Shown here: piece after piece, positions 4,415 to 57,925 of the stretch
Numbering within the stretch: the stretch's first letter is position 1
Layout of the letters: each line of letters starts with the position of its first letter
Source of the DNA: a virus
Taxonomy: Duplodnaviria; Caudoviricetes
IMG/VR virus record: IMGVR_UViG_3300044621_001273
Coordinates: 1-60,015 of that record
Strand: one strand, 5' to 3'
Length of the DNA stretch: 60,015 nucleotides
Notes under the pieces: model-generated
The model's input: the letters and a program-made list of their open reading frames with translations, nothing else
Database searches by the model: none
What the model was told of the DNA's origin: nothing
Translations under genes and position numbers: made by a program

Positions 4415-4926
4415 TACTTCTTGATGCGACGAGCTTCAGACAACCCAATGGCAACGGCTTGCTTGGGATTCTTCACAGCCTTGCCTGTACCGCCGCTACG
4501 AAGCGTCCCTGCTTTGTATTCACCCATCACCTTAGACATCTTCTTCTGAACAGCACCACCCTTAGCCATCTCAGGGCTAGGCATGATTTCGTCATAGCGC
4601 TCACCCATCTTACGCAACATCTCTTCTTCCTTCATCTTACGGCGAAACTCAGCAGCCGCCTTAGGACTAACTTCGCCTTCAGGGTTTTTCTTTTTAGCAG
4701 GCGATTTTTTTTCCGCTGTCTTTTTTGGGCGGTCATATTCTTTAGCACCAATAGTGAATGTCTTGTCACCGCGTGTGCCCTGACCACCCTTAGTCACTGT
4801 GCTTTCAAAAGTAGGAGTGTCTTGGACATATCTGTTAGCACCTTCCATAGGCTTTTTACTAGCACCACTGGAATATTTACCAACAGGCTTACCTTCTTTA
4901 TCAAGACGTCTATAGTTAGCCATCAC
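4414..4926 (-). CDS. Basic hypothetical protein with MAKGG motif
   Basis: K/R-rich; C-terminal KVMGEYKAGTLRSG...NPKQAVAIGLSEA. Confidence 0.7.
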   Translation of the reverse strand: MMANYRRLDKEGKPVGKYSSGASKKPMEGANRYVQDTPTFESTVTKGGQGTRGDKTFTIGAKEYDRPKKTAEKKSPAKKKNPEGEVSPKAAAEFRRKMKEEEMLRKMGERYDEIMPSPEMAKGGAVQKKMSKVMGEYKAGTLRSGGTGKAVKNPKQAVAIGLSEARRIKK

Positions 4927-5093
4927 TTCTTTCCCTTCTTAGGCACACCAACAGCCACCATAATGGCTAAGGCTTGCTTACCGCCTCGTTGAGGCTTTTT
5001 AGCCTTGCTAGACGTCATCATGCACTTCCCTGCTTTCTTGCAAGCAGCAGGGCTGGGACAATCTTCACAAGGCATAAACTTCTTTGCAGGCAT
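4923..5093 (-). CDS. Small basic Cys-containing protein (56 aa, not in the ORF track)
   Basis: MPAKKFMPCEDCPSPAACKKAGKCMM...KKGKK; overlaps both neighbours at their start/stop codons. Confidence 0.65.
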   Translation of the reverse strand: MPAKKFMPCEDCPSPAACKKAGKCMMTSSKAKKPQRGGKQALAIMVAVGVPKKGKK

Positions 5094-5773
5094 TATTTCT
5101 TCCTTTTGGCAGCGTAGCCGCCCTTAGCAAATTCAATGTCTTCTTCGTCTCTGGTGCGAGAGCGAGGAGAAGGCTTCTTCTTAGAAGCCCTCATCATACT
5201 CTCTTTCTTGGCTTCTTCCATAGCACGGGAACGTCCTGCTCTGGTTTCTGCCATCTTCTTGCGAGCAGCAGCACCTCTGACAGCAGCTTCAGCAGCTTCA
5301 CGTTCTTGAGCAGCAGTGAATTTACGTCCTGTTTCCTTAGACACCTCAGCCGCTCTCGGCTTAGAGAAAGCAGCAGCAGCGTCGTCTAAGCGGGTAGTGA
5401 CGGGTCTACCTACTCTAGGCTCTGTACGCGCTGCTGTTGCAGCAGCTTTGCCGCCCCTAACAGCACTCATCACAGGACCAGCAGCTAACATAGAAGCAGC
5501 CCCTAAAGCGCCTAATGTACGCTCCTTAGCCTTTTCTCTTTCAGCTTCATTGCTAGGAACAGACATGCCACGCTCTGAACGAGACTTCATACGCTGAAGC
5601 ATTGCATCAGAATCTGTGTCTTCCTTTGCTGTACGACGAGGGCCAGCAGAGGCTTTAGGAGCCCTTGTAGCAGCCTCTTCCTTCAACTCAGTGGTGTATT
5701 TATTACCTTGCCATGTAAACGTCTTCTTGCCAGCGTTTCTGGCTTCTCTAAACGCTTCCTTGAACGTAGCCAT
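5093..5773 (-). CDS. Basic hypothetical protein with C-terminal FAKGG motif
   Basis: N-terminal TFKEAFREARNAGKKTFTWQGNKYTTEL module; AAGGAAG upstream of the start. Confidence 0.75.
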   Translation of the reverse strand: MATFKEAFREARNAGKKTFTWQGNKYTTELKEEAATRAPKASAGPRRTAKEDTDSDAMLQRMKSRSERGMSVPSNEAEREKAKERTLGALGAASMLAAGPVMSAVRGGKAAATAARTEPRVGRPVTTRLDDAAAAFSKPRAAEVSKETGRKFTAAQEREAAEAAVRGAAARKKMAETRAGRSRAMEEAKKESMMRASKKKPSPRSRTRDEEDIEFAKGGYAAKRKK

Positions 5774-5837
5774 TTCACTTCTTCCTTTGTTGTTGAGGAC
5801 GCGGACCTTAGGTCCGCTGATGTAACACCTTTGGTGT

Positions 5838-5999
5838 TTATTTCTTAGCCTTTTGCTGAGGCTTCATTGAAGCACCGCAATTCGCCACCCGAGGGGCGGC
5901 GGGTGTAACACCACCCTTAGCCATCATAGCCATAGGCTTCTTAGGCTGCATAGGCGTTGCCATACCGCCGTATGCCATCTTCTTTGTACCACACTTCAT
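5838..5999 (-). CDS. Small basic protein (53 aa) with MAYGG and MAKGG motifs
   Basis: Start re-assigned to MKCGTKK, preceded by the SD AGGAG. Confidence 0.65.
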   Translation of the reverse strand: MKCGTKKMAYGGMATPMQPKKPMAMMAKGGVTPAAPRVANCGASMKPQQKAKK

Positions 6000-6000
6000 A

Positions 6001-6384
6001 TCAACTCCTATATTTAGCCGTCTTCTCAGCCACCTTCTTAGGCTGAGCAACAAATTGTTTTCCCTGCTTAGCTCCCGCAGCTTTAGCCTTATTAGTTGCT
6101 GCCTTCTCTGAAGCAGACAACGAAGACCAGGCAGCCTTAGGCAGATAACGACGCTTCCCTTCAGAAGGCTTCCCAGAAGATGTTGTCCATTCTTCCTTCG
6201 TCCATTTCGACATAGCCTTTTGAGCCTCTGTCTTTGGTCCTGTGTAGCTGCCACCTTTGTCTTTGTAGAGCTTGCCTGCTAGCTGTGCCTTCCTGGCTGA
6301 CCACTCACCAGCATCTCCACCTTTGCTACTGGCTTTAACATCAGCAACAACCTGCTTCCAGAGCTTTTCGTTAGTGCGTGCCAT
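6001..6384 (-). CDS. Conserved basic phage protein
   Basis: WSARKAQL...KWTKEEW...RYLPK motifs; TAATG coupling to the upstream gene. Confidence 0.75.
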   Translation of the reverse strand: MARTNEKLWKQVVADVKASSKGGDAGEWSARKAQLAGKLYKDKGGSYTGPKTEAQKAMSKWTKEEWTTSSGKPSEGKRRYLPKAAWSSLSASEKAATNKAKAAGAKQGKQFVAQPKKVAEKTAKYRS

Positions 6385-6662
6385 TACCACTTCACCTTAT
6401 CAGCCCAATAAGCAGCAGACAGCTTTCCTTTGGCTATGTTGCTGGCGTGTCTGGCTTTGAAGCTATCTCGACGCTTTCTATAGGCATCAGACTCGCCCTG
6501 CTTAGCTGGGCTACCAGAAACACCCTGCTGTCCAAACCTAATGGTCTTCACTGTGTCACCCTCTTTAGCAACAACAACGTGACTCTTCTTAGGATGGTCT
6601 GGGGTACGCTTAGGCTTGTTATAGCCGCTAACACCAGCCCTGACAAGCCTGCTGTCTTTCAT
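6384..6662 (-). CDS. Conserved basic phage protein
   Basis: GYNKPKRTP...IRFGQQG...SFKARH...SAAYWADKVKW. Confidence 0.75.
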   Translation of the reverse strand: MKDSRLVRAGVSGYNKPKRTPDHPKKSHVVVAKEGDTVKTIRFGQQGVSGSPAKQGESDAYRKRRDSFKARHASNIAKGKLSAAYWADKVKW

Positions 6663-6919
6663 TTCATTCCACCATTCTTATCTCTCTTAAAACTCCTGTT
6701 CTTAGCCTTATCCTGAACAGACAAGTTCTTAATTTTATTACTACCGCCCTTAGACAACGCCACCTTGTGAGCAACATCCTTACCAGCAACATCAACACCA
6801 GCAGTCTTTAGCTTAGCTCTGGCAGCGTTACGTTGGGCTCTGTCAGCAACAACAGAAGGCTTGCCGTCATAACGCTGTTGCTTGGCATAGTCTCTCTTAC
6901 CATTCGTCATGTACGGCAT
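6659..6919 (-). CDS. Small HNH-like endonuclease, possibly packaging-associated
   Basis: GKDVAHKVALSKGGSN...NL...NRS pattern. Confidence 0.6.
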   Translation of the reverse strand: MPYMTNGKRDYAKQQRYDGKPSVVADRAQRNAARAKLKTAGVDVAGKDVAHKVALSKGGSNKIKNLSVQDKAKNRSFKRDKNGGMK

Positions 6920-6920
6920 A

Positions 6921-7169
6921 TCAACACATCCCTTCTTGCTTCATTGCCTTCTGCACCACCCATAAAGGCAACACAACACCTTCTCTCTTCTCTATCAGAG
7001 CCCTGATGTAATAAACATCGGAATGAAAACCAACACTACCAACTCTTTCTTCCTTCTTAAACAACTCATCCATCACAACACTAAAAACAGAATAAGGTAA
7101 TTGATGAACTCTGTTTCCAAGCTCTGTTCTTGTTTTATATCTGCTCTTAAGAAATGTTGATGGTGTCAT
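6921..7169 (-). CDS. Hypothetical protein, first gene of the leftward late operon
   Basis: 82-aa ORF adjacent to the next gene; HSDVYYIR motif. Confidence 0.6.
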   Translation of the reverse strand: MTPSTFLKSRYKTRTELGNRVHQLPYSVFSVVMDELFKKEERVGSVGFHSDVYYIRALIEKREGVVLPLWVVQKAMKQEGMC

Positions 7170-7261
7170 TGTTTTTGTTGAAGGCTCTTAAGAGCCCTGA
7201 AGGGACAACACAGCTTCGCTGTTCATTGGCTCTATATAGACTATATAGATGTTGTTATCTC

Positions 7262-7386
7262 TGTTAGCGCTAATGTTGTTCTTAAGAAATAACAATGAAT
7301 ATTTTGTTAGCGTTAATGTTGTTTCTTAAGAAAAACAACAAATATTTATTGTTTTTCTATTAGCGCTGATGTTGTTTCTATATAGT
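7262..7386. repeat. Three AT-rich imperfect direct repeats (TTAGCG(C/T)T(A/G)ATGTTGTT...) with internal palindromes
   Basis: Copies near 7264, 7307 and 7360; TGTTGTTTCTTAAGAAAAACAACA is a near-palindrome. Confidence 0.7.
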
Positions 7387-7696
7387 GCTGTAAGGAGAAG
7401 ACATCAATGAAATAAATATTAGGGATCTGATGTTATGCTTACTATCTATATAGACGGTGTCTTAACAGTCGATTTTACATTATGAAATACTGTTTAGACA
7501 CAGCTTCGCCTACTATGCTCATTAGCATAGACCAGCTATTGTTGGTGTACGGTTCAGACTATTGAAGCTCACCACAGCCTCCCACGACACGTTCTAAACC
7601 TCAGCCCCTCGTTGATGCCTTTGTCGCTCACCCCTGGTAGGCATCTTTAATAACACAGCCACAGCCAGGTGTAGACGTCCCTGTGGCATAGGGTAG

Positions 7697-7726
7697 GTTG
7701 TAACATAGAAAAGATGGTGATGTCAA
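7697..7726 (-). promoter_or_regulatory. Sigma-70-like promoter for the leftward late operon
   Basis: TTGACA-N18-TACAAC with TG before the -10 box. Confidence 0.6.
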
Positions 7727-7769
7727 GCAGGGGTGATGTTTTTGTTGGTGATGGTGGTGAAGGCTGTGT

Positions 7770-7834
7770 AGCTACGTGTCGGTGTTGGTGTTGAAGGCTG
7801 TGTAGGTGGGACAGCTACGTGTCGGTGTTGGTGT
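7770..7834. repeat. 22-bp direct repeat AGCTACGTGTCGGTGTTGGTGT, 2 copies
   Basis: Copies at 7770-7791 and 7813-7834. Confidence 0.85.
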
Positions 7835-8170: not shown

Positions 8171-8188
8171 AATGCATTGCAACAAATA

Positions 8189-8307: not shown

Positions 8308-8309
8308 GA

Positions 8310-9828: not shown

Positions 9829-9915
9829 GGGTAAACACCTATGGGGCAGCGTCAATGCTGCCCCTACACTAAACACCATTGTTTGTGACAGACCCTAAGC
9901 AAAGGAAACACCATC
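9826..9915 (+). promoter_or_regulatory. Early expression cassette 2
   Basis: TAAGGGTAAACACCT, hairpin GGGGCAGC/GCTGCCCC, TACACT, leader ACCCTAAGCAAAGGAAACACC. Confidence 0.6.
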
Positions 9916-10062
9916 ATGAAAAAATACACAGTCACAATCCAGCATGTAGCATATGCTTTCATCCGGGAAAGTTTCCCAGTGTATGCGCCGTCAATTGACG
10001 CAGCATACGGAATAGCGCAAAGGCAAAAAGGAGAATGGTTTACCATTGTTAGTGTCAGATGA
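9916..10062 (+). CDS. Small early protein (48 aa)
   Basis: MKKYTVTIQHVAY...; AAGGA SD; not in the ORF track. Confidence 0.6.
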   Translation: MKKYTVTIQHVAYAFIRESFPVYAPSIDAAYGIAQRQKGEWFTIVSVR

Positions 10063-12689: not shown

Positions 12690-13058
12690 ATGAAAGTGTT
12701 CATCTATTTCAACCTGCATCGTCGCCTCTTCAGTGTCAAAGCGATGGAAGGTGAGTTCAAAGGACGTGTTGTTGCCCATGTTGACAGGGCTCTGTTGTCC
12801 AACGCTGTTTTCAAGGTGTCGCAGGCAGGACGTCAACGTGTTCTTCGTGAGAAGAAGAAGAATGTCCATGCTGGTGTTGTTGGAAACTGGGAAACGGTGC
12901 AGCACTACACAGGAAGTGGACTCACCGCCATCACCTACAACCCCTACAAATATTCTTCTTTTGTCACCCGCGACGAAGAAAAGCCGGTAACATCTTCACC
13001 ATTGGTTGCACTCAGCATCACCGACAAGACCACCATCAACGCTCTTCAACCTGTCTGA
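12690..13058 (+). CDS. Conserved hypothetical phage protein
   Basis: YFNLH...FKVSQAGRQRVLREKKKNVHAGVVG...YNPY. Confidence 0.75.
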   Translation: MKVFIYFNLHRRLFSVKAMEGEFKGRVVAHVDRALLSNAVFKVSQAGRQRVLREKKKNVHAGVVGNWETVQHYTGSGLTAITYNPYKYSSFVTRDEEKPVTSSPLVALSITDKTTINALQPV

Positions 13059-16699: not shown

Positions 16700-16893
16700 T
16701 AGTGTGTACATGTGGTCACAACGTAGACAGCTATGCCGACACAGCCACCATTGTCCTAAAGCAATATTGCCCAAGGAATGGTCCCTACATCAGCTACGTC
16801 GTCTATTGCAAACCCTGTGCTGATGAAGCAACACAGCACGGCGAAGTGCTTTTCAACGACAAAGACATTGACAACTGGCTTCAAATATCATGA
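16696..16893 (+). CDS. Small Cys-rich (zinc-ribbon-like) protein
   Basis: CTCGH...CKPC; ATGA overlap with the integrase. Confidence 0.55.
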   Translation: MIVCTCGHNVDSYADTATIVLKQYCPRNGPYISYVVYCKPCADEATQHGEVLFNDKDIDNWLQIS

Positions 16894-18056
16894 CAGACCT
16901 TGTCCTTCCGCGTCACGTTAAGAAAGTTGGCAACGACTTTTATTATGACCCCCCGCACAAAGCCGTTGTTGCTGGTGCTGTAAAGCGCAAGAGGAGCAAA
17001 GACTATGATGCAATAGTCAAGCACGCTGCTTTCTACAACGACAAATATGTCGAGTGGATAAAGGTGAGAGAAGAAACTCGACGCACCTACAAAGAAGGCA
17101 GAGTGACACATCTCATCAACAGCTATCTCAACAGCACAGACTATTGTGCTTTGACGCCCGGTGTCAAGAAACAATACAACATTGTTCTTCACCTGTGGCA
17201 GCACAAGCGAATTGGCGGTGTTGAATTTTTTAATGCAAAGATAGACTTCATCACAGCACCATTGGTACAGCGTATGTACGAACAGGAGTTGAAGTCTGGA
17301 TCAAGGCCGCTACAGACCAACCAGATCATTTCTGTACATCGATCTGTATGGAACTGGGGCATTCGTCATGGCTTCACCACATTGAATCCCTTCAGCCACA
17401 TCAAGAAAATATCTGTTGCTGCCAGGAAGATGATGTGGCAGCGCTCACAGGTGTTGTCGGTGTTGAATGCTGCATTCAGCAAATGGGAATGGAGAAGTGC
17501 TGGCATCATCTTTTATTGTCTCTATGAATGGGGACAGCGTGTCAGCGACATCCTCAATCTCAAGTGGTCCTCTGTTGACCTGAAGAATAAAACAGTGACG
17601 ATACAGCAGAGCAAGAAAGGCGTCACTGTACGCTTGCCAATTTCTGATGGTCTTGCTAACATCCTTCAGCAGCAGTACAAAGAACATCCCTGCCGCACCT
17701 ATGTTGCTCCTCGACATCGTTCTGCGGACAAACGCGATTGGGTGCCTTACACTATCGTCACCATCATGTATCACTTCAGAGAAATATGCGAGGTTGCTGG
17801 CATCCCTCAGGAGCTACAGCTTCGTGATCTTCGACGCACAGCCATCACTGAAGTCATTGAGAATGGTGGTGACCTGTTGACAGTGATGATGATGTCAGGG
17901 CACCAGAACGCTGCTAGTGTGTCTCCGTACTTTGTCCATACGCTGAAGGGCTCAACCAAGGCCCAACAGATCCGAGAGTTTCCATCAACTCTTATCAATC
18001 CCAACCTGCTAAAGGAAACGATGAATGAAAAATTTTCTGCAATTGCAGCAGCTTGA
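16890..18056 (+). CDS. Tyrosine recombinase / integrase
   Basis: GQRVSDIL (Arg), QSKKG (Lys), LRDLRRTA, SGH, and Tyr in VSPYF; 388 aa. Confidence 0.9.
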   Translation: MTDLVLPRHVKKVGNDFYYDPPHKAVVAGAVKRKRSKDYDAIVKHAAFYNDKYVEWIKVREETRRTYKEGRVTHLINSYLNSTDYCALTPGVKKQYNIVLHLWQHKRIGGVEFFNAKIDFITAPLVQRMYEQELKSGSRPLQTNQIISVHRSVWNWGIRHGFTTLNPFSHIKKISVAARKMMWQRSQVLSVLNAAFSKWEWRSAGIIFYCLYEWGQRVSDILNLKWSSVDLKNKTVTIQQSKKGVTVRLPISDGLANILQQQYKEHPCRTYVAPRHRSADKRDWVPYTIVTIMYHFREICEVAGIPQELQLRDLRRTAITEVIENGGDLLTVMMMSGHQNAASVSPYFVHTLKGSTKAQQIREFPSTLINPNLLKETMNEKFSAIAAA

Positions 18057-31385: not shown

Positions 31386-31462
31386 GCGTCCATAGCTCAA
31401 CTGGATAGAGCAACGCCCTTCTAAGGCGTAGGTTGTAGGTTCGATTCCTACTGGATGCGCCA
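31386..31462 (+). tRNA. trnR: tRNA-Arg (UCU)
   Basis: Cloverleaf; anticodon arm ACGCC-CTTCTAA-GGCGT; T-loop TTCGATT; encoded CCA. Confidence 0.95.
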
Positions 31463-31464
31463 AA

Positions 31465-31547
31465 GCTGGAGTCGCATAGCGGCAATTGCAACGGTTTTGT
31501 AAGCCGTCGGGAAACCTTCATGAGTTCGAGTCTCATCTCCAGCACCA
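31465..31547 (+). tRNA. trnT: tRNA-Thr (UGU) with an extended variable arm
   Basis: Acceptor GCTGGAG/CTCCAGC-ACCA; anticodon arm ACGGT-TTTGTAA-GCCGT; 12-nt variable region. Confidence 0.85.
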
Positions 31548-31553
31548 ACAACA

Positions 31554-31639
31554 GCGGCTGTGGTGGAATTGGTAGACACAGCAGACTTAAAATCTGCCAG
31601 CATTAAGCTGTACCGGTTCGACTCCGGTTAGCCGCACCA
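31554..31639 (+). tRNA. trnL: tRNA-Leu (UAA)
   Basis: Anticodon arm GCAGA-CTTAAAA-TCTGC; long variable arm; ACCA end. Confidence 0.95.
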
Positions 31640-34600: not shown

Positions 34601-35243
34601 TAGTCAACCAGCCAGCAACACCACCAACATATGTCGAAGGACTAGTTAAAACCGCCCTCAACTCTTGAGTAAAGGTAGTGCCTAGTTCTTTAGCAACACC
34701 ATAAGCCTGCCTCGCCACTTCCTTCTGCTCAGGCTTCGCATTCAACGCCCATGTCAGTTCATAGCCTAGCTCCATGTCATTCTTAGCCTGAGAACGCTGA
34801 AACTCCTCCACCAGCTTCACAGGCTCTTTAGGCATGGGCTTGTTGGGGAAGCGCTCCTTCATATAGCGCTGAATGATGTTGAGCTTGTCCTTCTGTGAAG
34901 CAATGTCAGAAACAGTGACAGGTGTTCCCATCTCTAGCATGGGACCAAAGCCTTCCATCTCCATCGTGGAACCAAAGCGGCCTGTGGTGTCAACATCACC
35001 TACCTCAGTGAAGGCGGCTGTAGGCATCCGTCCAGAAGGCGTAGGAGGCGCTACAGGGGCTGTAACAGGCGTTGGTGTAGGACGGGTAGGCTGAGCCTGT
35101 GCAGCGCGAACAGGGGCTGTTCTGGCGGGTTGTGGAGGCTCTTCTGTAGAGACAGAGCCTCCAAACTTCTTAGCAAGCCCTTCGTAGTCAGTCTGTACCT
35201 GACCGCCAAACTTCTTAGCAAGTTCTTCGTAGTCTGTTGCCAT
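31689..35243 (-). CDS. Large internal virion (ejection) protein
   Basis: 1184 aa, helical, last gene of the late operon; N-terminal DYE.LAKKFGG duplicate; ends FNKGGFVLRR. Confidence 0.7.
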   Translation of the reverse strand: MATDYEELAKKFGGQVQTDYEGLAKKFGGSVSTEEPPQPARTAPVRAAQAQPTRPTPTPVTAPVAPPTPSGRMPTAAFTEVGDVDTTGRFGSTMEMEGFGPMLEMGTPVTVSDIASQKDKLNIIQRYMKERFPNKPMPKEPVKLVEEFQRSQAKNDMELGYELTWALNAKPEQKEVARQAYGVAKELGTTFTQELRAVLTSPSTYVGGVAGWLTKQALLKPAVVSATKKALAVTGVTAAVEGGAAGTQDVIRQRTEKELGLREEMSYAQTALSVGVATALGAVGGKGVADIKAEQAPARIASLAQRKKGAPALTDKQTADFLKQFAAKEKSVGENRKALFADSFARREARKETLDKMDAPGAVTEAVLNENTVADIFKVAKQIYIDNPLLRPDLNEVRITQAVANTLKEADVDTIQQAAARAGVNNKEFLETFRVTLSQAGATLKEASSLAQFLNKATKGDPKLEEALKNMSRASYGTEYWSGKAIDFGTGVVGTSVAASTASLSTAVLNAIGLAGSVPLKVAADTVDAVYSTAGRMLYDLRGGVLTKDRAKEDVSEAFADSFFVLKTMADAGYTSEVTDLMLKNQPRLNNLLSSVGAETDSRGLPASVAKVMNTINIANRAVDSVVRRPIFLQAVKDRMDAVGLDYEDFIANNKAIPVALLKEAADDALKLTFSYEFKKTGEKSFEGAAENLAAFTLQLFNRNGLAGIPGKLIHPFMRFSLNSIRYTYRMTPASALGGVQELRQSRKFLNESEKLRAAGNDKEADEFGAKAAGLAYDAKKKILDATVGTSVIYGAMAFREENSDLEAHQYRDDDGNIKDGSGLFPFVNISYMAEAALLMRDMSQTLWYTLKMSKEERQQEATKFKQQAESLALNEKGRQELLLKAEQLELNRVRKFDGQKFMEIMTGMGRSSLSQNTVFERVSRLFEEGITTDVERKAGTEVGDFLGRFDNFFNPAYDAVNFLLEDYSVVDTRAPVEGLGTFAGAVAAPVLGPIPGARGFLEERPSLFQTTPQQVPTVLRQLQGVRPTPPTSVAENELARLRIPSFSLYKSTGDRTLDNLTIREAAPLVEAAVDDLVNKDKAYPFLSINEQRRTMKSRISQAISMAKTNVQDTYLETNPEKSVNRMFEGLGKEKRDAAVDRFIKTEKRRPESLRDKLRIIHGEFDIAEAIGKDFNKGGFVLRR

Positions 35244-36666: not shown

Positions 36667-37119
36667 TTACTCCTTAGACATTAAACCACCCTGCTTTACA
36701 GCAGGAGCTTCTTTCACTGTAGCAACAGCACCGCGTAGCACTTCTCTTGCTGTCTTCTCATCAATGTCTGTTGCTTTTTCAAAGTCTTCATCTTCAACAA
36801 CATACCCAACATCATTCATGTCGCCAATGGTTTTCATCAGCTCAATGATGATAGGAATAACAACAAAGCCTAAGTCTACAGTGTGAGTCCCTTTCATGAT
36901 GCCTAGCTTGATGATGCCTTGCGACAGCCTCATCAAAGAGATGTTGTTCTCCATAGCCAGCAACATGCTGTCAACAGCTTCTTCTGTTGTCAATCTCTCA
37001 ACGTAGTACGACACCACTTGATCCAATGTGGTGTACTGCGGCGGCTGTTCCCAAGGTCTATTACCAGGCTCTGTTGTCAAAGACATACCTGGGATGGTGG
37101 GTGATAGTGCTCCAATCAT
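36667..37119 (-). CDS. Conserved virion-associated protein
   Basis: IPGMSLTTEPGNRPWEQPP motif. Confidence 0.7.
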   Translation of the reverse strand: MIGALSPTIPGMSLTTEPGNRPWEQPPQYTTLDQVVSYYVERLTTEEAVDSMLLAMENNISLMRLSQGIIKLGIMKGTHTVDLGFVVIPIIIELMKTIGDMNDVGYVVEDEDFEKATDIDEKTAREVLRGAVATVKEAPAVKQGGLMSKE

Positions 37120-37350: not shown

Positions 37351-39687
37351 TTATGGAAGAGCCTTGACAAACCCTTCAACAATACTTCCCCACAAACCAG
37401 CTTCAGCAGCTTCTTCAGCAGCAGCGCCTCTAATTTCTGAGATTAACAGCTCTGCTCTTCTATCTTCATTCTTCTCAAAGCTCTGCCACATCTTCTCAAT
37501 CTGATCTCTGAAAAGCTGTGTCTCATTATTGTACTCAGCCAACGTCATCTGCTGCAAATTCTGAGCACCTAAATACAGAGCAGCATTAAGAGCAGCGGTG
37601 TCAGCAGTGCTTACTTCTCTACGCCATTGAGCATTGCTCTGATCGATGACGAGACGCTGCGTAGAGTTAAACTGATCCCTCAGGTTTTCTTGTTCAGTGT
37701 TGAACTTTGTGACTGAGTTCACTTGATCTGTACTAAACTGAGCTAGAGCATTACGCTGAGCTACATTAAACTGAGATATTGTAGAAGCAAGAGTCGCCAT
37801 GAACTGATCTACCTGAGTCTTATTTGCTGCGTTAAACTGTTTAGCAGCATTCTCAGCCGCTGTGTCAGACAACAATGACTGTACAAGTTGCTCTGTCTTA
37901 AACAGTGTTGTCTTCTGCTCTCTGTCGTAGTTTGCCATATCCATTGCCAAGAAAGACTGAGCATTTGTAACAGCAGCTTGCTGTAGGTTGGTTAGGTTGG
38001 TGGTTTCTAACGTAGCCATCTGAGCCGCTTTAGCGATGACAACAGCTTGTCTATTCTCTAAGTTTGCCAAATCCACAGACTGAGCCAGCCTAGCGTTCTC
38101 TAACGCAATTTGTTGTTTAGCTGTGAAGTTGATATTGGCAACGTCAGCAATGCGAGCAGCATTCTTCACCTTCACTTCAAACTCTTGGTTGAACTCTTGT
38201 TCTAAGAAAGCGGCTCTTTGTTGTGCCGCCAGCACAGCCATTGCTTGTCTGTTGCTTAAATTTTGCTCAGCCATTGCTTGATAGGCTTTAGCATCGGTAG
38301 TTGCAATAGGTAAGGCCGACTCAATAGCTGCTTGGACAATAGCAGCGCCTGCCATAGAAGAAGCGCTTAAGCCTCTCTGTGCCATTGTGGCTGTAGCTAC
38401 ACGCAGAGCGCCAGCGGCCCAGCCAGGAGGATTCTTAGCATCAAAATTTGCTGTGAGCTTCGTAAGCTGGCCCTGTACGGTCATGTCTTCAGAGACAACC
38501 CCTTGTGCAGCTTCTTCCTTTGTCTTGGCAATGGCTTCATCAACCTTAGCCATATTGACAGCAGATTTGTCCAAAAGCTCACCAGCACCTACAGTGAGTT
38601 CAGGAGGTGCTTGAACCTCTCTAGCTTTATCAAGCTGTTCTGCTTCTAGGTCGGACAGAACAGTCTCTGTAGGTTCTTTTTGTGCTGCATCAACTTGAGC
38701 TTCTTTGCTGACAGTGCCTTTTACAGCTTGAACACCGCCTTCAGGTTTGAAGGTTCTGACATATTCTTCATATCCTTCTCGTGCGGCATCAATAGGTTCT
38801 CCATCGGGCCCTATTCTTATAACAGCAGGAAAAACCTTATCTTTACTCCACTCTTCAAAGCTAAGTGGCTTGGTTCCCTCTAATACACCTTTAACACCTT
38901 CAGCAGACTTAGACGCCTCCATTGTCGTTGCTGTGATAGCAGCAGGCATCTTTGCTTCTTCAGCCGTTGCTGTCTTAATATCTGTCACCGTCTTAGCAGT
39001 GCCAGCACCCCCTACACCCGAGATGTCTTGCCCCGGTGTAATTGATGTCGTTGCAGGGGTGAAGCCAGCAGCAGCACCTGGTGAAGGTGTACCAGTGCGT
39101 CCTTGTTCTTCGCTGAGGGTGACACCGCCCCCACCTTGTACAGAGCCTGTTTGGTTTGGTTGAACGGTGGAAGGGAATGGACCCGTCTCAGAAATTTGCT
39201 GGGACACCTCAGGAGAAACAGTGACAGGTGTAGTTCCAGTGCTAACGCCTGGAAGGGTGATGTTAGTCGTAGAGGTAGGTGCTGGCGCAGGTGCTGGCGC
39301 AGGTGCTGGCGCAGGTGCTGGCGCAGGTGCTGGCGCAGGTGCTGGCGCAGGTGCAACTGGCTGCGCCCCAGGTCTCAACAAAGCCTGAGGAGGATTAGGA
39401 TCTTCAGGACTAGGGTTCGAAAAGTAAATGGCATTAGCGGCGTACTTCTGCCCCGTGGCTTGATCTGTGTATGTGCCGTCAGCGTTTTGGACAAGGCCGC
39501 CTTCAGCATAACTTGTGACAGACCCTCCCTTAGCCATCCTCTGAGCATACTTATCCGTCACAGAGTTGTACTTCATCATCAACGCTGGTGAGCTATTAAG
39601 AAAGTCATCAAAGCCCTGCATAGGGCCGTCGTAGCCCATCTTACGAGCCAGTATTTCACGCTGCTTAGAGGTAAAGGATGTTTTCAT
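37351..39687 (-). CDS. Putative internal virion (ejection) protein
   Basis: 778 aa; Q/A/N-rich helical repeats (QFN), Pro-Ala linker, MAKGG and YAEGG motifs. Confidence 0.7.
39277..39354. repeat. 12-bp perfect tandem repeat x6.5 encoding (PA)n
   Basis: AGGTGCTGGCGC repeated. Confidence 0.95.
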
Positions 39688-45806: not shown

Positions 45807-48800
45807 TAGTATGCCCTAACGCCTGTGATGGTGAGATAGTCAACATCGGCTGCTGTACCAGAGCCTGTGTGGACTAATGTGCATGGAGATGATGCAGAAG
45901 TCCCCGTCAGTGTCAACACTCTTCCAGCTTCACCAGTGGCAGTGAAGCTACCAACACGCTGTGTTGTTGTGCCGAAGGCGATGGTGGTGGCACCAGTGGC
46001 TTTGTAGGTGTTGGTGATGTTGGCGAAGGTGTTGTTGCCGCTGATGGTGAGAGTGCCTGCGCCGCCTTGGTTGAGGGTGATGTTGGTGTAGGCGATGCCG
46101 CCGCCAGCGAAGGTTTTGGCTGATGCAGAGGTGAGGCTGATGGTGCCTGTGCCTGTGACGGTGAGGTTGGTGGAGGTGGTGGCATCCCATGAAGTCCCGG
46201 CGTCAGTAACGGCACACAGACTAGAACCAATATTTAATGTTCTAACATCAGTGCCTGAAAGCCTCCAAACTGCTGATGTTATTGAATAATCATTTGTATT
46301 AAATGTTCCAGATGTAAGTGTTACGCCATTAAGTCCTTGCGTTGTAGTCAAAGAGTCAAGACAAGATACGCTACCAGATCGCGCATTTATAATGACACCT
46401 TGTGTGAATGTTTTTCCTGCGCTTGTAATAGTTTGACTTCCTCGCCCGGCAAACGTAAATGACCCGGAGTTGCTCAAGGTAGTACCTGTACCGTTAATCC
46501 AGTTCCCGTGAATAAACGGAGCTTGAGTACAAGCCAACGTCATCGTATTCGTCGTCCTAGCCGACATATCAATCGTGCCGATGTTGTAGGCTTGGTTGAT
46601 GGTAATGGTAGCGCCGCTGTTCAACCCCGTAGCTTCAAAGAAGCAGGTGTCTTGGGCAAGCGGGAAGTCGTTGATGTTTGGCGTGCCGCCGCTGCCTGTA
46701 GCCCAGCCCGTTGCAGACCAGTTGCCGCCAGCAGCAAGGTTCCAATACTTGTTCGCCGCAGCCGTGAACGTGATGCCGCTGTTGCCTTTGCAATCGCCAA
46801 TGCGCGTGCCCGTCGCTGGCGCTGCTACACCGGCTATGGTGATGTCTCTGAAGTCAACGTCGGTCAAGGACACAGCCGCGCAGGTGAGCGTGCGTGTGGT
46901 GCCGAGGGTGTCAGAGCAAACGAAGTGACGCATCGTGGCGTTGGTGCCTGCTGAGCAGGTGAGGGTGCCTGTGATGGTCTGGTCTGCTGTGACGCTGATG
47001 ACCTTCAAGCCAGCAGAGGTGATGCCGGTGAAGGACAGGTCGTTGAAGCTATTGGCTCCGTTGATGGTGACGGTGCCTGCGGATGTGTCAGTAAATGCGA
47101 CGTTATAGAAGGTTTTGCCATTTCCTGAAAAGGTTGGGTTGCTTCCAGTGCAGTTAATTTGCGCAGTTCCGGCAACAATCGTAAGATCAGCAGATGTAGT
47201 TTCCGTAGTTCCAAACGCAAATGCGCCACTACTACCAGAAGTCGTTATAGTCCCGGACCCAAAGTCAAAGGTTCTTATATTAGAAGAACTGCAGGTAATT
47301 CCCCCACATGTCAAATTGTACGTTACACAATCAAAAACTCCATTAACTAACGTAAAGCCCCCTACTGTGCTCAAATCTAAAGCACTACCCAACACCCATT
47401 CACACCCCACCCCATTCACCGTAATGGACGATGCCAACGTCACACCGTTTGTCGTCAACGTCAACCCAGACGTAGACCCAGACAGCGTGATAGCGCCTGT
47501 GTACGTCCTCGTCAGCCCTGTCGCAGGCAGCGTCACGTTGCCGTGAATACCAACAATAGCTGTGCTGCCTGCCAGCGTCACGTTGCCCACCAACGGGCCT
47601 GCAATGGTGAGGGCTTTGCAGCGAATGCCGCCAGTGACAGCATTCACCGTGGCTGTGTAGGCTGTGGCGTTGGACAGGCTGTCGAAGACAACATCATCAT
47701 GGCTTCTCGGCACAGACGCGCCTGAGCCTCCACCAGACCCTGTAGACCAACGAGCGGTGTCGCTCCAGTTGCCTGTGCCACCAACCCAGTAGCGCGTGCT
47801 GTCGGCTGGCTTGGCTGTGCGGTAGACAGGCGCTGCCGCTGTGCCTGTGCTGTTGGCACCGGCGTAGAACTCACCAGGGCTTGTGGCAGCAAAGCCAATG
47901 CTGCCCATGGCAAGGTAGTCAATGCTGTCTGTGCAAGCTCCAGCGAGGATGTGAGAATTGCCTGAACCAGTCAGCGTGACCACGTTACCCACCGTACCTG
48001 TAACCGTCCAAGCGCCAAAGGTCTGTGTGAATGCGCCAAGGGCGATGGTGTGGGCTACGGTCTTTGTTGAGGCAAGTTCGGTGAATTGGTTACTGTCGTT
48101 AATGGTAGTAGTAGATGTGCCCGTTGCGCCTCCAATGGTGAGTTTGTTGTAAGACAAAGCGCCGCCAGAAAATGTACGAGCAGTTGTGCTGGTATCAGAT
48201 AGAACGATGTTGGCTGTGCCTTTATAGAAAACGGGGGTTGCCGATATTTGCCATACGTTTCCAACACCTGACAAAGTCCAAGTACCAGAACCCATTTTTA
48301 GTGTAGATAGCACAGAAGTGTTTGAAAATAAACCTATCGTTACATTGTATGTAACCGCATCGAATACCCCTTGAAATAAACTTAATGTTCTAGTGGAGCC
48401 TATAATTAACGCATCACCAAGTTGCGTTGTGCTAAAAGGTTGGATAGAAATATTACAACCAAACGTAACTCCATTGCTGGTAATGGTCTGAGTGCCACGT
48501 TTGGCAAAAGTAATCGTGCCTACTGTGCTGGATGACGTAACCCCAGTGCCAAACTTCCAATCGCCGTAAACAAACGGAGTGTTGGTGCTGGTGGTGAGCG
48601 TCATCGCACTAGTCCGCAACGACGCATCAAACGTGCCGATGTTCCAAGCAGCATTGATTGTGATGGTGCCTGTGACGCTGCCAGCAGCTTCATCAAACAC
48701 CGCTGTGTCCTGCGCCAATGGGAAGTTGTTGATGTCAGGACTGCCACCAGAGGAAGGTGCCCAAGCTGTAGCAGACCAGTTCTGTGCTCCAGCAAGGTTC

Positions 48801-50846: not shown

Positions 50847-51557
50847 TTAGCTCTCCTTAAATCTCAATGCCTTGTGTCCATGCGTATCCAACTTTACATG
50901 GCAAGGCCGACAAACAGTTCTTCCGTTACTCACGTCATACCGAAGATCTGGAAAGGCACACCACGGTTTAATGTGATCTGCCTCTAAATACCCGCCCCGG
51001 GTGTTACAAATTTTACAACTCCAGTTATCTCTTACAAAGACCGCGTTTCGCCAGTCTCTATATGGGTACTGCGCCATCGCTGTTTTACGCTCTGATCTTA
51101 AGCCACCACGCCAATTCGGATGATCTGAACCGTGACGATAGTTTTGTCTTTGAAACTCAGAGATCTTTTTGCGAGTCTCGTCTGAATGCCCCCGTTTTTC
51201 TGGCGGTACTAGGTCAGGATGTCCTTTCGTAAACAAGCCTTTTAACTCTCGGCCGGCGTAGTAGCAAACCTTACTGCAAAACTTCTTGCGTCCAACTTGA
51301 TTGGGCTCAATTCTCATGTCAACGCCACAAGTCTTGCAGTTAATGTGAACTCCTTCTGTTTTGTTCCATGCGGGCCTGCCGTTCTTTATGCCTTTAAATG
51401 GTGACGGTTTACCTCGTAGTGCCTCGGCTGCTTTGGTAGCTCGAAGAGCGTAAGAACACTCCTTAGAACAAGTTGTCTGCCGCCCGTGCTTTAAGCGTCC
51501 CAAATCTGCAAAATAACTCTTATTGCAGATAGGACAAAGCCTTTCGACAGACTCCAT
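50847..51557 (-). CDS. Free-standing HNH homing endonuclease with Zn-finger and NUMOD-like segments
   Basis: CPIC..CSKEC, PAWNK, HSDETRKKIS, HPNWRGG, VFVRDNWSCKIC, ADHIKPW, NGRTVCRPCH. Confidence 0.9.
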   Translation of the reverse strand: MESVERLCPICNKSYFADLGRLKHGRQTTCSKECSYALRATKAAEALRGKPSPFKGIKNGRPAWNKTEGVHINCKTCGVDMRIEPNQVGRKKFCSKVCYYAGRELKGLFTKGHPDLVPPEKRGHSDETRKKISEFQRQNYRHGSDHPNWRGGLRSERKTAMAQYPYRDWRNAVFVRDNWSCKICNTRGGYLEADHIKPWCAFPDLRYDVSNGRTVCRPCHVKLDTHGHKALRFKES

Positions 51558-52882: not shown

Positions 52883-53666
52883 TTAGGCCACGTTGTACTT
52901 GGCCGTGGTCAGAGCCTCAGGACGCAAAATCTTGCGACCATAGAGGTGCATACCACGAACAATGTCAGCAAACGAGTCCGGATCGCGATAGGTCTCAGTC
53001 TTGTTGATCTGCTCAGCAGAGGCAACAGCGCTGTCGTGACCGGCAACGATGACACCGAAGTTGCTGTTCTGGTTAGCCGTGCCTGTCGTGCCTGGGCCAG
53101 TGCCAACCTTCGGCAGGTTGTTGCTGACATAGATCTTGAAGCCGTGCAGGTTGTTCAACAGAAGACCGTTTTGCAGACCAGAGCCACCGAAGTCTGCATT
53201 CAGAAGACGGCTGTCCTCGTCCTTCAGCACTTCAACGAACACCGGATCAACCACAAGCCAACGACCATTGGTGTCAACGTTTTGTTGATCCAACAGACGC
53301 GACATACGAGCAATGATCATCAACGGCGACACCAGATCAGTCGGCATCGTCGTGACCCCAGGCAGACGCGCTGCAATGGGAATCGAATGATCACCGGCGC
53401 TGGCTGTGGTGATGTTGCCAAACGAGCTCTTGATGAGCTTCATCGTCGTCAACAGTTCGTCGTTACCAGCAGTCGAAACAGCCTTCGTACCAGGGAAGGT
53501 AGTGCGGGCGGTGTCGGCGCTGCCATGCAACACAGACTGTTGATAACCAGCGAGGTAGCCGAGAACGTCTTGGTCGAACTGGTCCTTCAAGCGATAGGCA
53601 GCACGATCAGATGCCAAAGACATCCAATTGATGTGCGACTGAGTTGCTTCGATGTCGTCAACTTTA
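52883..53666 (-). CDS. Major capsid protein, exon 2
   Basis: (F)KVDDIEATQSHINWMSLASDRAAYRLKD...RDPDSFADIVRGMHLYGRKILRPEAL. Confidence 0.93.
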
Positions 53667-53960
53667 CCTTTATATTCAGCAAGGGTCGTTAATCCTTACC
53701 CGCTTTATTCAAGCTGCTGCATTTTTCAATGCAGAGTAGACTATATCATCACCCTGACTTATCAGGGGCTGGGCGCTTCCGCTCACTTGAGCGTATGGAT
53801 TTCATCTCCCCGTAGGGCGGTATATCCTAGTCGTTGAACCTTCAAAGACCTTTCGGTCTATGCTTGGCTGCTGATTGCCTTAGCTATTATGCCTTAGGTT
53901 TTCCAGCAATTAACCCAGTTATTTAGATGAGATTACTCTCAAATGCGTCTGTTAGTGTTA
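53667..53960 (-). ncRNA. Group I self-splicing intron (subgroup IA-like, 294 nt, no ORF)
   Basis: P AATTGCTGGAAAA (53911-53899), Q AATCAGCAGCC, R GTTCAACGACTA, S GATGATATAGTCT; P1 GCGUU/GACGC with U.G at the splice site; terminal G; splicing restores the frame. Confidence 0.93.
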
Positions 53961-54247
53961 AACGCGAAGTAGTTGGCCTTATCGACAACCAGCGTGAAAT
54001 CGCTGTCATCAAGGTCTTGAGCCGTCACTTGAGTGCCGCGTGCATAAGCCTGAACGCTGACCTCGGGCTCCTTAACGATCTTAACTGAGTCCCCCATGCT
54101 GGAGATTTCTCCGAAATATTCGGAGTTGGTGATCGCTTGAGCGACCGAAGATTTCCTAAACGCGAGTTGTACTTTTTTACTGTAGATAATTGGCGACCAA
54201 TTACCATTTTGGAGGCTTGTATAGCCCGAAGCTGATGCAAACGCCAT
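53961..54247 (-). CDS. Major capsid protein, exon 1
   Basis: AAGGAG SD; MAFASASGY...NWSPIIYSKKVQLAFRK...YFGEI...VDKANYFA; spliced product 356 aa. Confidence 0.93.
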
Positions 54248-54475: not shown

Positions 54476-54477
54476 CA

Positions 54478-55353: not shown

Positions 55354-55474
55354 ATACTTTCCTTAACTTGGGGCTATCTGTAGCCAGCATAGGCTGGGGA
55401 AATAGGTAGCCAACAATGCGTCTTTTTGTTAATGGCTAGTTAGGACGCTCCAGAGCTAGCCTTGCTATTGTAGG

Positions 55475-57925
55475 TTATTTAGAGGCGGCGATGCCTTTAC
55501 CTTTCTTTTTCTTGGCTGGGTATTGGCGCTTTGCTACTAAGCCGCCTTTGGCTGCTCCAAAAGGACCAGCAGGACCATCAAAAGAAGCAGAGAAAGGATC
55601 TGGTGTTGACTCCGGAGTACCAACACTGCTTTCAGTACCCCCGCCTCCTCTATCAATCATGTCTTGTCTTGCCTGTGCTTCAACGACAGCTTTATTTGTT
55701 GCTGTGTTAATATCAACACCAGAATTAACGTCTGAAAGAACCCTAGAAGCTGCTTTTCTTGCAATCTCATCGTTAACAACACCTGCATTTTGTACAGCAC
55801 TATATACAGTGCTAACAATAGATTGTTGTTCGTTGAAAGGAAGCCCTGGTGTTCTTGTTTCAACAGGAGCAGGAGGCTGTTCCTTACCCTTTAAAAACGC
55901 CGCTGCTTTTTGAGCAAGAGCAACCCCAGGGATAACAAAAGGAGCAGCTTTAGTTAGAAATGTATTGACTTTTCCTAACTGTTCATCTCTTTTTGCCGCT
56001 TCCTCAGGCGTCAAATCTCTACCAAGTTGCGGAGTATCGCTATACCCATAATCATCTTGTGTAGGCTTCTTCTTCTTAGCTTCTTCCTCATCAGCAGCTT
56101 GTCCAACCTTCTGCGCCTCTTCAGCACTCACTTGTGTGAAGCCTTCAGGAATAGGCGTCATAGGCTTACCATTGATGTGCGTAATGAACATCGTGGCACC
56201 TTCTTTGTTCTTGTAATAGCGAACATCAAAGGCAGGATTCTTAGGAGCCTTTGTCAAGTCTGTGCCGCTGCCGACATAGCCGCCAAAGGCCATCTTCATC
56301 TGATCATCGACATCACCGCCGTTGTTCTCGTTTTCCACTTCACCGAGGATGTCATCAATCTCACTCTCAAAGCCATCGTCTTCATAGGTGCTGTTGGACT
56401 CTTCACCAACTTCATCAGCATTGCCCATCTGACCAATGTCAGACATGCGTTGAATGCCTTTCTTGGCTTCATCACGCATTTTCATCAGGCGTTCTAGACC
56501 GATGAAGCGAACGACATCAGCGGGAATAACAAACTCACCTGGCGACAACTTAGCGTCTACGTCATCCCTGACTTCCTCAGGAAGAGAGCCGACAGGCACT
56601 TCGTTGCCGCTGACAGGATCGACGTTCATGCCTCCTTCTTGGAAGCCTGGGATAGTTGGTTTCATCATTCCACCTTTTGCAAATGTAGGACTAGTTTCGT
56701 CTTCAGGTTTTACTTTAAAAATAGGATCGTCTGGAACTGTTGTTTTAGCTTTTTTGGCAAGAACTAGAGGCCCTACTTGTATTACTTCTTCAGCAGATAT
56801 CACAGGAAAACCTGAAGACTTATCATAAAAATAACTGGCTCTATACGGATTCATCCCTACTTGTGACCACTCTTTATTATTCATGACTGTTTCTGCGTAT
56901 TCTTTGGCTTTTGCAGGATCATGTGGAACCCACTCTCCAAAAATACGAGCAATAGTGGCTTTCCCCATTCTTCCACCGCTAGCTAAAGGTTTTCTTCTAG
57001 CAATATCTAAAGCTGTCTTAGGATCGCTCTTAAATTCAACATCTTTCAATACGGCTGTTTTTGCATATCCAATAGCATTTCCAGACTTTTTAGTGCCGTC
57101 ATGAAGACTAACAATCCACGTATCGTAGTCATTATATGCTGGTATGTCTAATCTAGATGCAACCTTTGTCCCAGCCTCCAGTTTTAAATTAACTCCAACA
57201 ATACCTGTTTTTACTTGAGAGTCTTTAAGAGCACTGGCAATATCTTCAAACGAGGGCATGTCTGGAACTTTGTCAAAAGGTTTAATTGGTTGTTTTTCTA
57301 CAGACAAAGCCCTAAACTCAGTAGGAGAAATTTGTTTGTTATATAGTTTTTCAGCCGCATCTTCTATTTCTGGTAAAAGACTAGAACGCTGCTCAACTTT
57401 GCGAGAACTCCTCCACTGTTCTTTTTTTTCTGGTGTTATATTAAGAGCTTCAAAAACATCTTGCCCTTCTTTAGCAAGTTTTTTTGGTTCTGTTCCAAAT
57501 TTAGAAACGACATCATTAGCTTCTCTAACCAACAAACCTGATTTCTCTAGCCCAGAACCAACATCACCAACACCAGCCAAACCAACACCGGCCTTGCCCA
57601 CTTTAGGCACACCAGCCAACATAGCCAAATCAGCAACTTGTTGTTTTCTTCCTGCTTTCATTTCAGGCACATACGACGCTGTTCTACCAGCAAGCGGGTT
57701 AATACGCATAGGCATATTGCCATAGCTCATTTCATTTAGTTCTTCAGGGGCTTTTCCAAGAACTAAAGAACCTAGTCCTTGTCCTCCAATTAGAGGAACA
57801 GACTCAGGAACTTGTGCTTTATCTGCAAAATTTCTAGCAGCCATTAAAGCATCAGCAATGATTCCCATTCGCTCACTACGTGGCGTTGGTTTCATCTCTG
57901 CTTCTTTACGATCACCTAGTGGCAT
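55475..57925 (-). CDS. Multidomain head-associated protein with four xxxGG motifs
   Basis: 816 aa; AT-rich central domain; DDVDAKLSPGEFVIPADVVRFIG domain; FAKGG, FQEGG, MAFGG, AAKGG. Confidence 0.75.
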   Translation of the reverse strand: MPLGDRKEAEMKPTPRSERMGIIADALMAARNFADKAQVPESVPLIGGQGLGSLVLGKAPEELNEMSYGNMPMRINPLAGRTASYVPEMKAGRKQQVADLAMLAGVPKVGKAGVGLAGVGDVGSGLEKSGLLVREANDVVSKFGTEPKKLAKEGQDVFEALNITPEKKEQWRSSRKVEQRSSLLPEIEDAAEKLYNKQISPTEFRALSVEKQPIKPFDKVPDMPSFEDIASALKDSQVKTGIVGVNLKLEAGTKVASRLDIPAYNDYDTWIVSLHDGTKKSGNAIGYAKTAVLKDVEFKSDPKTALDIARRKPLASGGRMGKATIARIFGEWVPHDPAKAKEYAETVMNNKEWSQVGMNPYRASYFYDKSSGFPVISAEEVIQVGPLVLAKKAKTTVPDDPIFKVKPEDETSPTFAKGGMMKPTIPGFQEGGMNVDPVSGNEVPVGSLPEEVRDDVDAKLSPGEFVIPADVVRFIGLERLMKMRDEAKKGIQRMSDIGQMGNADEVGEESNSTYEDDGFESEIDDILGEVENENNGGDVDDQMKMAFGGYVGSGTDLTKAPKNPAFDVRYYKNKEGATMFITHINGKPMTPIPEGFTQVSAEEAQKVGQAADEEEAKKKKPTQDDYGYSDTPQLGRDLTPEEAAKRDEQLGKVNTFLTKAAPFVIPGVALAQKAAAFLKGKEQPPAPVETRTPGLPFNEQQSIVSTVYSAVQNAGVVNDEIARKAASRVLSDVNSGVDINTATNKAVVEAQARQDMIDRGGGGTESSVGTPESTPDPFSASFDGPAGPFGAAKGGLVAKRQYPAKKKKGKGIAASK

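Follow-up and report, generated by a model that had tools for sequence, protein, structure and literature searches.

The stretch of DNA analysed here, in the following the window, comprises the 60,015 nucleotides of the IMG/VR virus record IMGVR_UViG_3300044621_001273 and carries, on several late proteins, a short Gly-Gly peptide of the form (F/M/Y)-(A/N/Q)-x-G-G, termed the tag. A preliminary description, made from the letters of the window, had proposed the tag as a capsid-targeting or proteolytic-maturation signal, possibly read in trans by a domain with the core L-S-x-G-E-F-V (GEFV) that occurs once. As assessed by PHROGs, Pfam and tblastn, the window is the genome of an aquatic podophage of the HMO-2011 type; the portal gene runs off the window at position 2 and resumes at position 60013, and the genome is therefore complete and circularly permuted. 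HMO-2011-type phages are reported to rank among the most abundant marine viruses (PMC9038755). When 50,697 records were searched by tblastn with the 816-amino-acid (aa) protein encoded after the portal gene, 14 records matched, exclusively of HMO-2011-type phages, with MW202701 from a freshwater spring as the best and CRP roseophages and HMO-2011 as the next, while a nucleotide search against cultured phages returned zero matches.

The minus strand (positions 1-7169 and 31689-60015) encodes terminase, portal, scaffold, capsid, an SU10-type adaptor and lysis genes and, in addition, a GP4-type fibre adaptor and a tubular-tail-B homologue, the plus strand (about 8000-31400) the replication genes, all by PHROGs and Pfam; the same scan of the genome found no tape measure.

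The tag on late proteins and its excess

The open reading frames (ORFs) that carry tags, besides that of the 816-aa protein detailed below, are the following.

4555-4569, minus strand: MAKGG in a 170-aa basic protein (ORF 4414-4926), directly N-terminal to DUF6496
5117-5131, minus strand: FAKGG in a 226-aa basic protein (ORF 5093-5773), 7 residues from the C-terminus, with the tail YAAKRKK up to the stop
5838-5999, minus strand: basic protein of, most likely, 53 aa (isoelectric point 10.4) with two tags, MAYGG (5964-5978) and MAKGG (5910-5924)
31707-31721, minus strand: FNKGG at the C-terminus of an 1184-aa protein (ORF 31689-35243), 5 residues before the stop and followed by FVLRR
39496-39537, minus strand: tandem MAKGG (39523-39537) and YAEGG (39496-39510), 9 residues apart, in a 778-aa protein (ORF 37351-39687)

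All eleven sites named in the preliminary description, as well as the single GEFV stretch, lie where they had been placed, the tags in a six-frame scan all on the minus strand. The strict pattern, [FMY][ANQ]xGG, was defined post hoc and leaves the AAKGG of the 816-aa protein outside. In the curated late set, 11 strict matches occur in 37 ORFs (11,327 aa) versus 1.26 expected, and not one of 1000 within-protein shuffles reaches 11, whereas the 43 ORFs of the early set (7,013 aa) hold none, with 0.40 expected, which bears out the proposed absence of the tag from early proteins. For [FM]AKGG alone, the automatic gene call, which missed the 170-aa ORF, gave four occurrences versus 0.02 expected. 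In line with the claim that they are unrelated, the six tagged proteins show no significant similarity to each other (best pairwise BLASTP E value 0.079).

As the pattern had been chosen on the window, it was checked on independent DNA, where the excess on the late strand recurs. It amounts to 8 versus 0.95 expected in MW202701 (none of 1000 shuffles reaching 8; one match on the early strand), 6 versus 1.30 in HMO-2011 (5 of 1000 shuffles; none on the early strand) and 7 versus 1.64 in CRP-9 (1 of 1000 shuffles; one on the early strand). Neither the window nor any of these three genomes shows an excess of the reversed or permuted patterns used as controls. Related loci, numbered with the prefix L, were taken from viral contigs, of which 80 were seeded on the neighbouring 411-aa gene; together these 80 hold 207 matches in 286,487 aa of the late strand and one in 24,214 aa of the opposite strand. 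With duplicates removed, the 21 close contigs show 86 matches versus 6.8 expected (reversed control 4 versus 6.6) and the 59 distant ones 109 versus 37.7 (highest shuffle 57; reversed control 27 versus 39.7). The late-versus-early enrichment across relatives that the preliminary description had put forward as a test was thus found. T7 (one match versus 1.06 expected) and P22 (one versus 1.29) display no excess; lambda has two versus 1.08 expected, both within the tape measure gpH.

A strict match in a 1609-aa fibre-like protein, FAGGG (46097-46111, minus strand), lies within a repeat (GTISLTSASAKTFAGGG...) that is conserved as a repeat in L038 and L051, and probably does not belong to the tag system. 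On the other hand, looser Gly-Gly motifs fall outside the strict pattern, the count of which therefore underestimates the system: ELAKKFGG occurs twice at the N-terminus of the 1184-aa protein (31689-35243, minus strand), and VKQGGLMSKE forms the C-terminus of a 150-aa protein (36667-37119, minus strand).

The consensus, built on the 151 contexts that were left when 199 unique ones had been filtered at 60% redundancy, reads [K/P]-x-[M/F/Y]-A-[K/E]-G-G-[M/I/L/A]-V-K-K, with valine at the second place after Gly-Gly in 44% of the 151 non-redundant contexts. When the first residue was left free, methionine, tyrosine and phenylalanine together preceded the alanine in 55% of 111 contexts versus a background of 9%. 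Phenylalanine and tyrosine fill this place about equally often as methionine, and a derivation of the methionine of MAKGG from internal translation starts was rejected on this ground. Tandem copies are spaced by 8 (12 cases), 9 (5 cases) or 13 residues (9 cases). The tag is a short linear motif rather than a domain, situated in disordered linkers and termini of non-enzymatic late proteins. Synonymous codons differ among the eleven sites, so that selection acts on the peptide and no common DNA word exists.

The carriers are rich in lysine, arginine and glycine, with a lysine plus arginine fraction of up to 0.24. In the 170-aa protein, DUF6496 (Pfam, residues 126-167, E value 4.5e-10; score 40.2 bits, curated cut-off 24) begins two residues past the tag; in L022 it stands alone as a 52-aa ORF (9843-10001), which puts the split point a few residues past the tag. 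The C-terminal tag with basic tail of the 226-aa protein recurs widely, among others in L008, L015 and a 345-aa protein of HMO-2011 that ends in FNRGGMVKKRKK. In an ORF of nominally 138 aa (5838-6254), translation most likely begins further in, at an ATG behind TAGGAG as its own ribosome-binding site, and yields the 53-aa protein; homologues bearing both tags are encoded in L007, L015 and L021. MW202701 and L087-L090 preserve the FNKGG near the end of the 1184-aa protein. The tag pair of the 778-aa protein occupies residues 51-64 ahead of a Pro-Ala linker and is retained in MW202701 (residues 49/58), HMO-2011 (52/61) and L087-L090 (51/60). The positional conservation anticipated for the tags consequently holds for the 778-aa, 1184-aa and 226-aa proteins and, as described below, for the post-portal proteins.

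Apart from the tags, the small tagged proteins (5838-5999, minus strand, and many loci among L018-L027) share a recurring C-terminus, (N/M)CGASM(K/P)P(Q/A)QK(R/A)KK up to the stop, and an N-terminal CGTKK, with paired cysteines that hint at metal binding or a disulfide.

The post-portal protein and its GEFV module

The most elaborate carrier is encoded directly after the portal gene, and portals of about 705 aa are found at the equivalent position, directly upstream of the post-portal gene, in 15 loci.

58130-60013 and 2-376, minus strand: portal gene (C-terminal 627 codons and N-terminal part, respectively; phrog_332, Pfam SU10_portal)
55475-57925, minus strand: 816-aa post-portal protein
56669-56683, 56630-56644 and 56279-56293, minus strand: its tags FAKGG, FQEGG and MAFGG
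55541-55555, minus strand: its tag-like AAKGG
56426-56641, minus strand: the GG...GEFV module, residues about 429-500
56780-57118, minus strand: weak L5 gp82-like stretch, residues 270-382 (PF25735, E value 0.0021, below the cut-off; phrog_586, E value 3.1e-5)

From its N-terminus, the protein consists of a cassette, FAKGG, FQEGG, the GEFV module, an acidic linker, MAFGG, two small folded domains, AAKGG and a basic tail. The sequence DDVDAKLSPGEFVIPADVV is found once, at residues 452-470 (56516-56572). The PHROG tape-measure family phrog_37649 matches residues 418-499 with an E value of 5.2e-5, in agreement with the earlier proposal that the element is linked to tape-measure proteins, and tag and GEFV occur together, as suspected, in all four complete genomes.

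The module family comprises 3006 representative clusters at an E value of at most 0.001, with 27 invariant columns in 59 sequences. Within the 150 best representatives, the architecture of the 816-aa protein is conserved: a strict tag stands at most 60 residues upstream of the GEFV core in 120 and 40-140 residues downstream of it in 123, and 56 of the 60 cassette-bearing representatives have one between the N-terminal cassette and the module. Six members of the family (P0047, P0061, P0077, P0080, P0086 and P0092) possess a tag at residue 2; with no leader left to remove, the tag must there act in the finished protein. The cassette itself is variable, with three different arrangements in the window, in L008 and L025, and in L018. 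The minimal post-portal protein of close relatives starts with MLKRRNSIPG-FQEGG, and other relatives have different cassettes inserted at the tags.

In a structural model of residues 405-816, the two small domains are predicted with confidence, while the tags and the GEFV stretch are non-globular: all four tags lie in stretches with a predicted local distance difference test score (pLDDT) of about 46-51, and the GEFV stretch, modelled with a 59-row alignment, has no predicted compact fold (pLDDT about 50-65). Together with the flanking of the post-portal cassettes, these low-confidence linkers and ends agree with the placement of the tags at termini and domain boundaries in the preliminary description.

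Homology searches added little. NCBIfam gave no match for eleven late proteins, a sequence search of solved structures with the 816-aa protein, the family profile or the module alone gave no usable relative, and an atlas look-up of the N-terminal cassette no usable match. A ribbon-helix-helix assignment, based on the Joint Genome Institute name 'Arc/MetJ-type' on 21 of 120 homologues among the matches listed, was not reproduced by Pfam and was discarded; 59 members of the module family matched no peptidase or ribbon-helix-helix family of Pfam at an E value of up to 1. The L5 gp82-like stretch of the cassette has a clear stand-alone counterpart among the early genes (12690-13058, plus strand, Pfam E value 9.8e-41); a domain of early type may be present in the particle as a copy.

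Proposed docking and trimming, and alternative readings

The closest comparisons are with the tape measures of lambda and T5, small proteins of T7, the capsid-targeting signal of T4 and Gly-Gly cleavage motifs. In lambda gpH (around residues 735-785), FATGG, the core HRGEFVFTKEATSRIG leading to LYRLMRG, and YATGGYVG follow each other, and residues 415-549 of the 816-aa protein have the like order of FAKGG/FQEGG, SPGEFVIPADVVRFIG leading to LMKMRD, and MAFGGYVG; the protein thereby shows the succession of tag, GE-aromatic-V core with helix, and tag that makes up the tape-measure joint. gpH is matured to gpH* and gpHC by a cut in a glycine-rich region, the site and enzyme of which are given as unknown (PMC12617516); the cut region lies just before FATGG. 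The gpH sequence ends with MRDGGLF, and residues 818-849, which the same paper gives as resolved on gpI (PMC12617516), include this end. The tape measure pb2 of T5 is reported to be cut after R1127, as mapped by mass spectrometry (PMC10038345). The cut thus reported, between FVPR and AEGGMMYPGVSYQMGEHGTEVV, directly precedes AEGGMM, the only A-x-G-G-hydrophobic-hydrophobic motif in the 1219 aa of pb2, sits two residues ahead of the Gly-Gly and is followed further on by MGEHGTEVV. The tape-measure cut of JBD30 was dropped as a further case, since the cited paper predicts it by analogy and does not map it. Unlike in lambda and T5, where the motifs reside in gpH and pb2, the element belongs here to a podophage that has no tape measure and lies in the gene following that of the portal, and the short tag occurs without the GEFV core on at least five further late proteins.

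In T7, residues 84-98 of gp7.3 anchor between nozzle subunits, with K84 and K85 on the DNA end, and loops of gp6.7 sit on the portal barrel and gp15, according to PMC11784390. Both gp6.7 and gp7.3 are, on this account, small, basic, ejected and held by short loops, as the small tagged proteins would be, and the C-terminus of gp6.7, SAFGGKK up to the stop, resembles tags with basic tails such as FAKGGYAAKRKK. Unlike the tags, the T7 loops share no common motif, and with no detectable homology the likeness concerns a possible mode only and not membership.

The capsid-targeting signal of T4 is an N-terminal leader on internal proteins which is removed by the phage-encoded protease gp21. Like this leader, the tag is a short portable peptide common to unrelated proteins that would be destined for the head interior, but it is C-terminal in the 226-aa and 1184-aa proteins, interdomain in the 816-aa protein, about 50 residues into the 778-aa protein and often in tandem, and no phage-encoded prohead protease family was matched in the window by Pfam or PHROGs. 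The x-G-G cleavage motifs of the adenovirus or ubiquitin type and the double-glycine leaders of bacteriocins have a hydrophobic residue before Gly-Gly. The tag shares such a residue and the occurrence on basic proteins of a putative DNA-associated core, but its hydrophobic residue lies one place further from Gly-Gly and conservation extends beyond Gly-Gly to the residues that follow. Clan CE, JAB and C39 peptidase families had no match among the window ORFs scanned with Pfam and PHROGs, and the T5 cut, as reported, precedes Ala-x-Gly-Gly and does not follow Gly-Gly.

We tentatively favour the tag as a joint at which internal proteins, probably destined for ejection, are docked and, at some copies, also trimmed. 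Its carriers comprise the post-portal protein, two large proteins encoded where the late operon ends and a number of small, strongly basic ones; their gene positions, basic disordered make-up and sparse family matches suggest that they are internal virion proteins delivered on ejection. The tag would be identical with the element on either side of the GEFV core in long-tailed phage tape measures, a strand-turn peptide which binds a virion component by docking into a site that is repeated in the portal, the core or the tail channel; the adjacent basic tail would lie on DNA like the C-terminal loop of T7 gp7.3; some copies would probably also be sites of precursor trimming, as in T5 pb2. Docking and cleavage are two close readings which are not mutually exclusive. 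The tandem spacings of 8-13 residues fit multivalent docking better than cutting, and the conservation of residues on both sides of Gly-Gly and the tags at residue 2 likewise speak for docking; conserved tags and a conserved module that are predicted to be unfolded are typical of segments that become ordered only on a partner. Precedents by analogy are T7 gp7.3 and gp6.7 and the contact of lambda gpH with gpI for docking, and the cuts in T5 pb2 and lambda gpH for trimming. The maturation signal of the preliminary description survives in this form: the T5 cut abutting a tag-like motif supports it by analogy, and cutting in this phage would concern some copies; capsid targeting as such is conjectural.

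Several observations weigh against this explanation. A 1142-aa homologue of the 1184-aa protein in L091 is without the C-terminal tag, and among the 150 best module representatives the final 40 residues include a strict tag in only 41, or in 78 if the pattern is loosened. The module is not significantly similar to lambda gpH on its own (BLASTP E value 0.22). The sole mapped site, that of T5, suggests cleavage over docking and has arginine instead of F/M/Y before the alanine. Of 20 tagged proteins from distant loci, one matched a 'DNA ejection protein' family, two tape-measure families and 17 none. The literature searched holds no virion proteomics, structure or genetics for any HMO-2011-type phage, so that the carriers are only putative particle proteins, and no partner was found for the tag. 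Co-folding of the 704-aa portal of L012 (14-row alignment) with residues 405-504 of the 816-aa protein scored 0.00, without controls, and carries no weight either way.

The closest competitor, which we consider possible but on the whole unlikely, is a pure maturation cleavage site, at or beside which a host protease or self-cleavage would free the cassettes, remove short leaders and clip the basic tails of internal proteins, with no docking role. The positions of the two cuts reported for T5, directly ahead of the only motif of its kind, and lambda, in the glycine-rich stretch adjoining FATGG, are as expected for such a site, and so are tags at cassette borders and near termini in a genome where no phage protease family was matched; that host enzymes can act in this way is known from P22 gp7, the 20 N-terminal residues of which are removed by OpdA according to its RefSeq note, with KGGKGG as the next residues. 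However, tandem tags 8-13 residues apart would release tiny peptides, residue-2 tags leave nothing to remove, the hydrophobic-Val pair and a module of 75 residues are conserved beyond the needs of a cut site, and a single enzyme common to E. coli and marine alphaproteobacteria, hosts that are far apart, would be required; for this group of phages, the literature searched contains no loading or cleavage data and no semi-specific peptides. In an improbable variant, close to what the preliminary description had imagined, the GEFV module would itself be a reader, or an element of self-processing, and would act in trans by binding or cutting the tags that other proteins carry. Module and tags do co-occur in the four complete genomes, the enzyme of the lambda and T5 cuts is not known, and in T5, lambda and this phage alike the GE..V core has its nearest upstream tag at a distance of 14-31 residues, whereby a cis-acting element is conceivable; the name 'Arc/MetJ-type' on some homologues and two helices predicted right after the GEFV strand would permit strand pairing. 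Against a reader stand the modelled monomer, which has no confident fold, the family searches without peptidase, ribbon-helix-helix or solved relative, and the core L-S-x-G-E-F-V, which resembles the tag M-A-K-G-G-M-V and has tags of its own upstream in 120 and downstream in 123 of 150 representatives, so that it looks like another copy of the element that is read; the trans-reading claim is accordingly not supported.

Equally improbable appears a role after ejection without any in assembly, as a flexible hinge or an epitope for the host envelope while a trans-envelope channel is built. The motif is common to tape measures and to the proteins that are presumed internal in podophages, the two groups being the first to exit through the tail, Gly-Gly stands in disordered linkers, and a neighbouring 473-aa protein has a hydrophobic, glycine-zipper-like N-terminus; yet a mere hinge would not conserve F/M/Y-Ala before and hydrophobic-Val after Gly-Gly, no host partner is known and the hosts of motif-bearing phages are very diverse. 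Hardly credible is an origin in the biased composition of Gly-, Lys- and Ala-rich basic proteins or in a DNA-level recombination joint. The richness of the carriers in lysine, arginine and glycine and the cassettes swapped at tags would fit, but the shuffles that gave 1.26 expected versus 11 observed preserve composition, the reversed and permuted patterns are not enriched, and the recombination signal was rejected on the codon variation at synonymous positions, which leaves no common DNA word.

The earlier failure to recognise a conventional phage protease was confirmed at the level of Pfam and PHROGs, as no peptidase family matched among the 37 late and 36 other ORFs, with remote folds possible in several ORFs of unassigned function. 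A 411-aa 'virion structural protein' (3179-4414, minus strand) lies beside the tagged genes and is highly conserved, with 435 relatives in viral contigs. Modelled at a mean pLDDT of 80.7, it consists of two concanavalin-A-like lectin/glucanase sandwiches, with the receptor-binding domain of TM4 gp23 as the best match in the PDB; considered as a reader or protease, it was rejected as a protease on account of this double lectin-like fold and, as modelled, is probably a binding protein. A sequence search of solved structures was unusable for it, and an atlas look-up gave unnamed viral clusters only.

As a shared joint, the motif would connect long-tailed phage tape measures with internal proteins of short-tailed phages. 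If its seven residues mark the internal proteins of HMO-2011-type phages, they would help to predict which uncharacterised proteins enter the particle and would point directly to the cleavage of lambda gpH, as yet unmapped; possibly they would also serve to package foreign proteins into phage heads. As a long shot, tag and module would form an enzyme-free system to load, hold and release, in which the module pairs strands with the tags and drives their cutting. Such a system would cover everything the phage sends ahead of its DNA, the module would be the long-sought agent of the gpH and pb2 cleavages and the tag a portable means of loading foreign proteins into phage particles. Full-text literature searches with the motif strings and with GEFV and tape measure returned no description of the motif, and the words 'glycine' and 'linker' are absent from a survey of polyvalent proteins (PMC5512222). 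The tape-measure joint is already implicit in known sequences, but the virion-wide spread of its seven-residue core over unrelated podophage proteins is not described in the literature searched.

Further features of the genome

The location of the 411-aa gene, upstream of the terminase genes, is unusual for a likely binding protein. At the switch between early and late strands, transfer RNA genes for Arg-TCT, Thr-TGT and Leu-TAA are encoded (31386-31639, plus strand), and a tyrosine integrase among the early genes (16890-18056, plus strand) suggests temperate potential.

The late operon contains a free-standing HNH endonuclease gene (50847-51557, minus strand); related contigs have HNH genes elsewhere in the late region, after the portal or beside the capsid gene. 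The capsid gene (52883-54247, minus strand) is split by a group I intron (53666-53959, minus strand; Rfam RF00028, 92.7 bits, match 53717-53970). A tblastn comparison with the capsid protein of L018, which is intact and 355 aa long, locates exon 1 (codons 1-96) at 54247-53960 and has exon 2 begin at 53665; some relatives (L018, L025 and L027) possess an uninterrupted gene. Between the portal and post-portal genes, a 73-aa ORF (57912-58133, minus strand) overlaps the start of the latter; it matches no family and is kept in all close loci, in HMO-2011 (gp50) and in CRP-9 (gp55).

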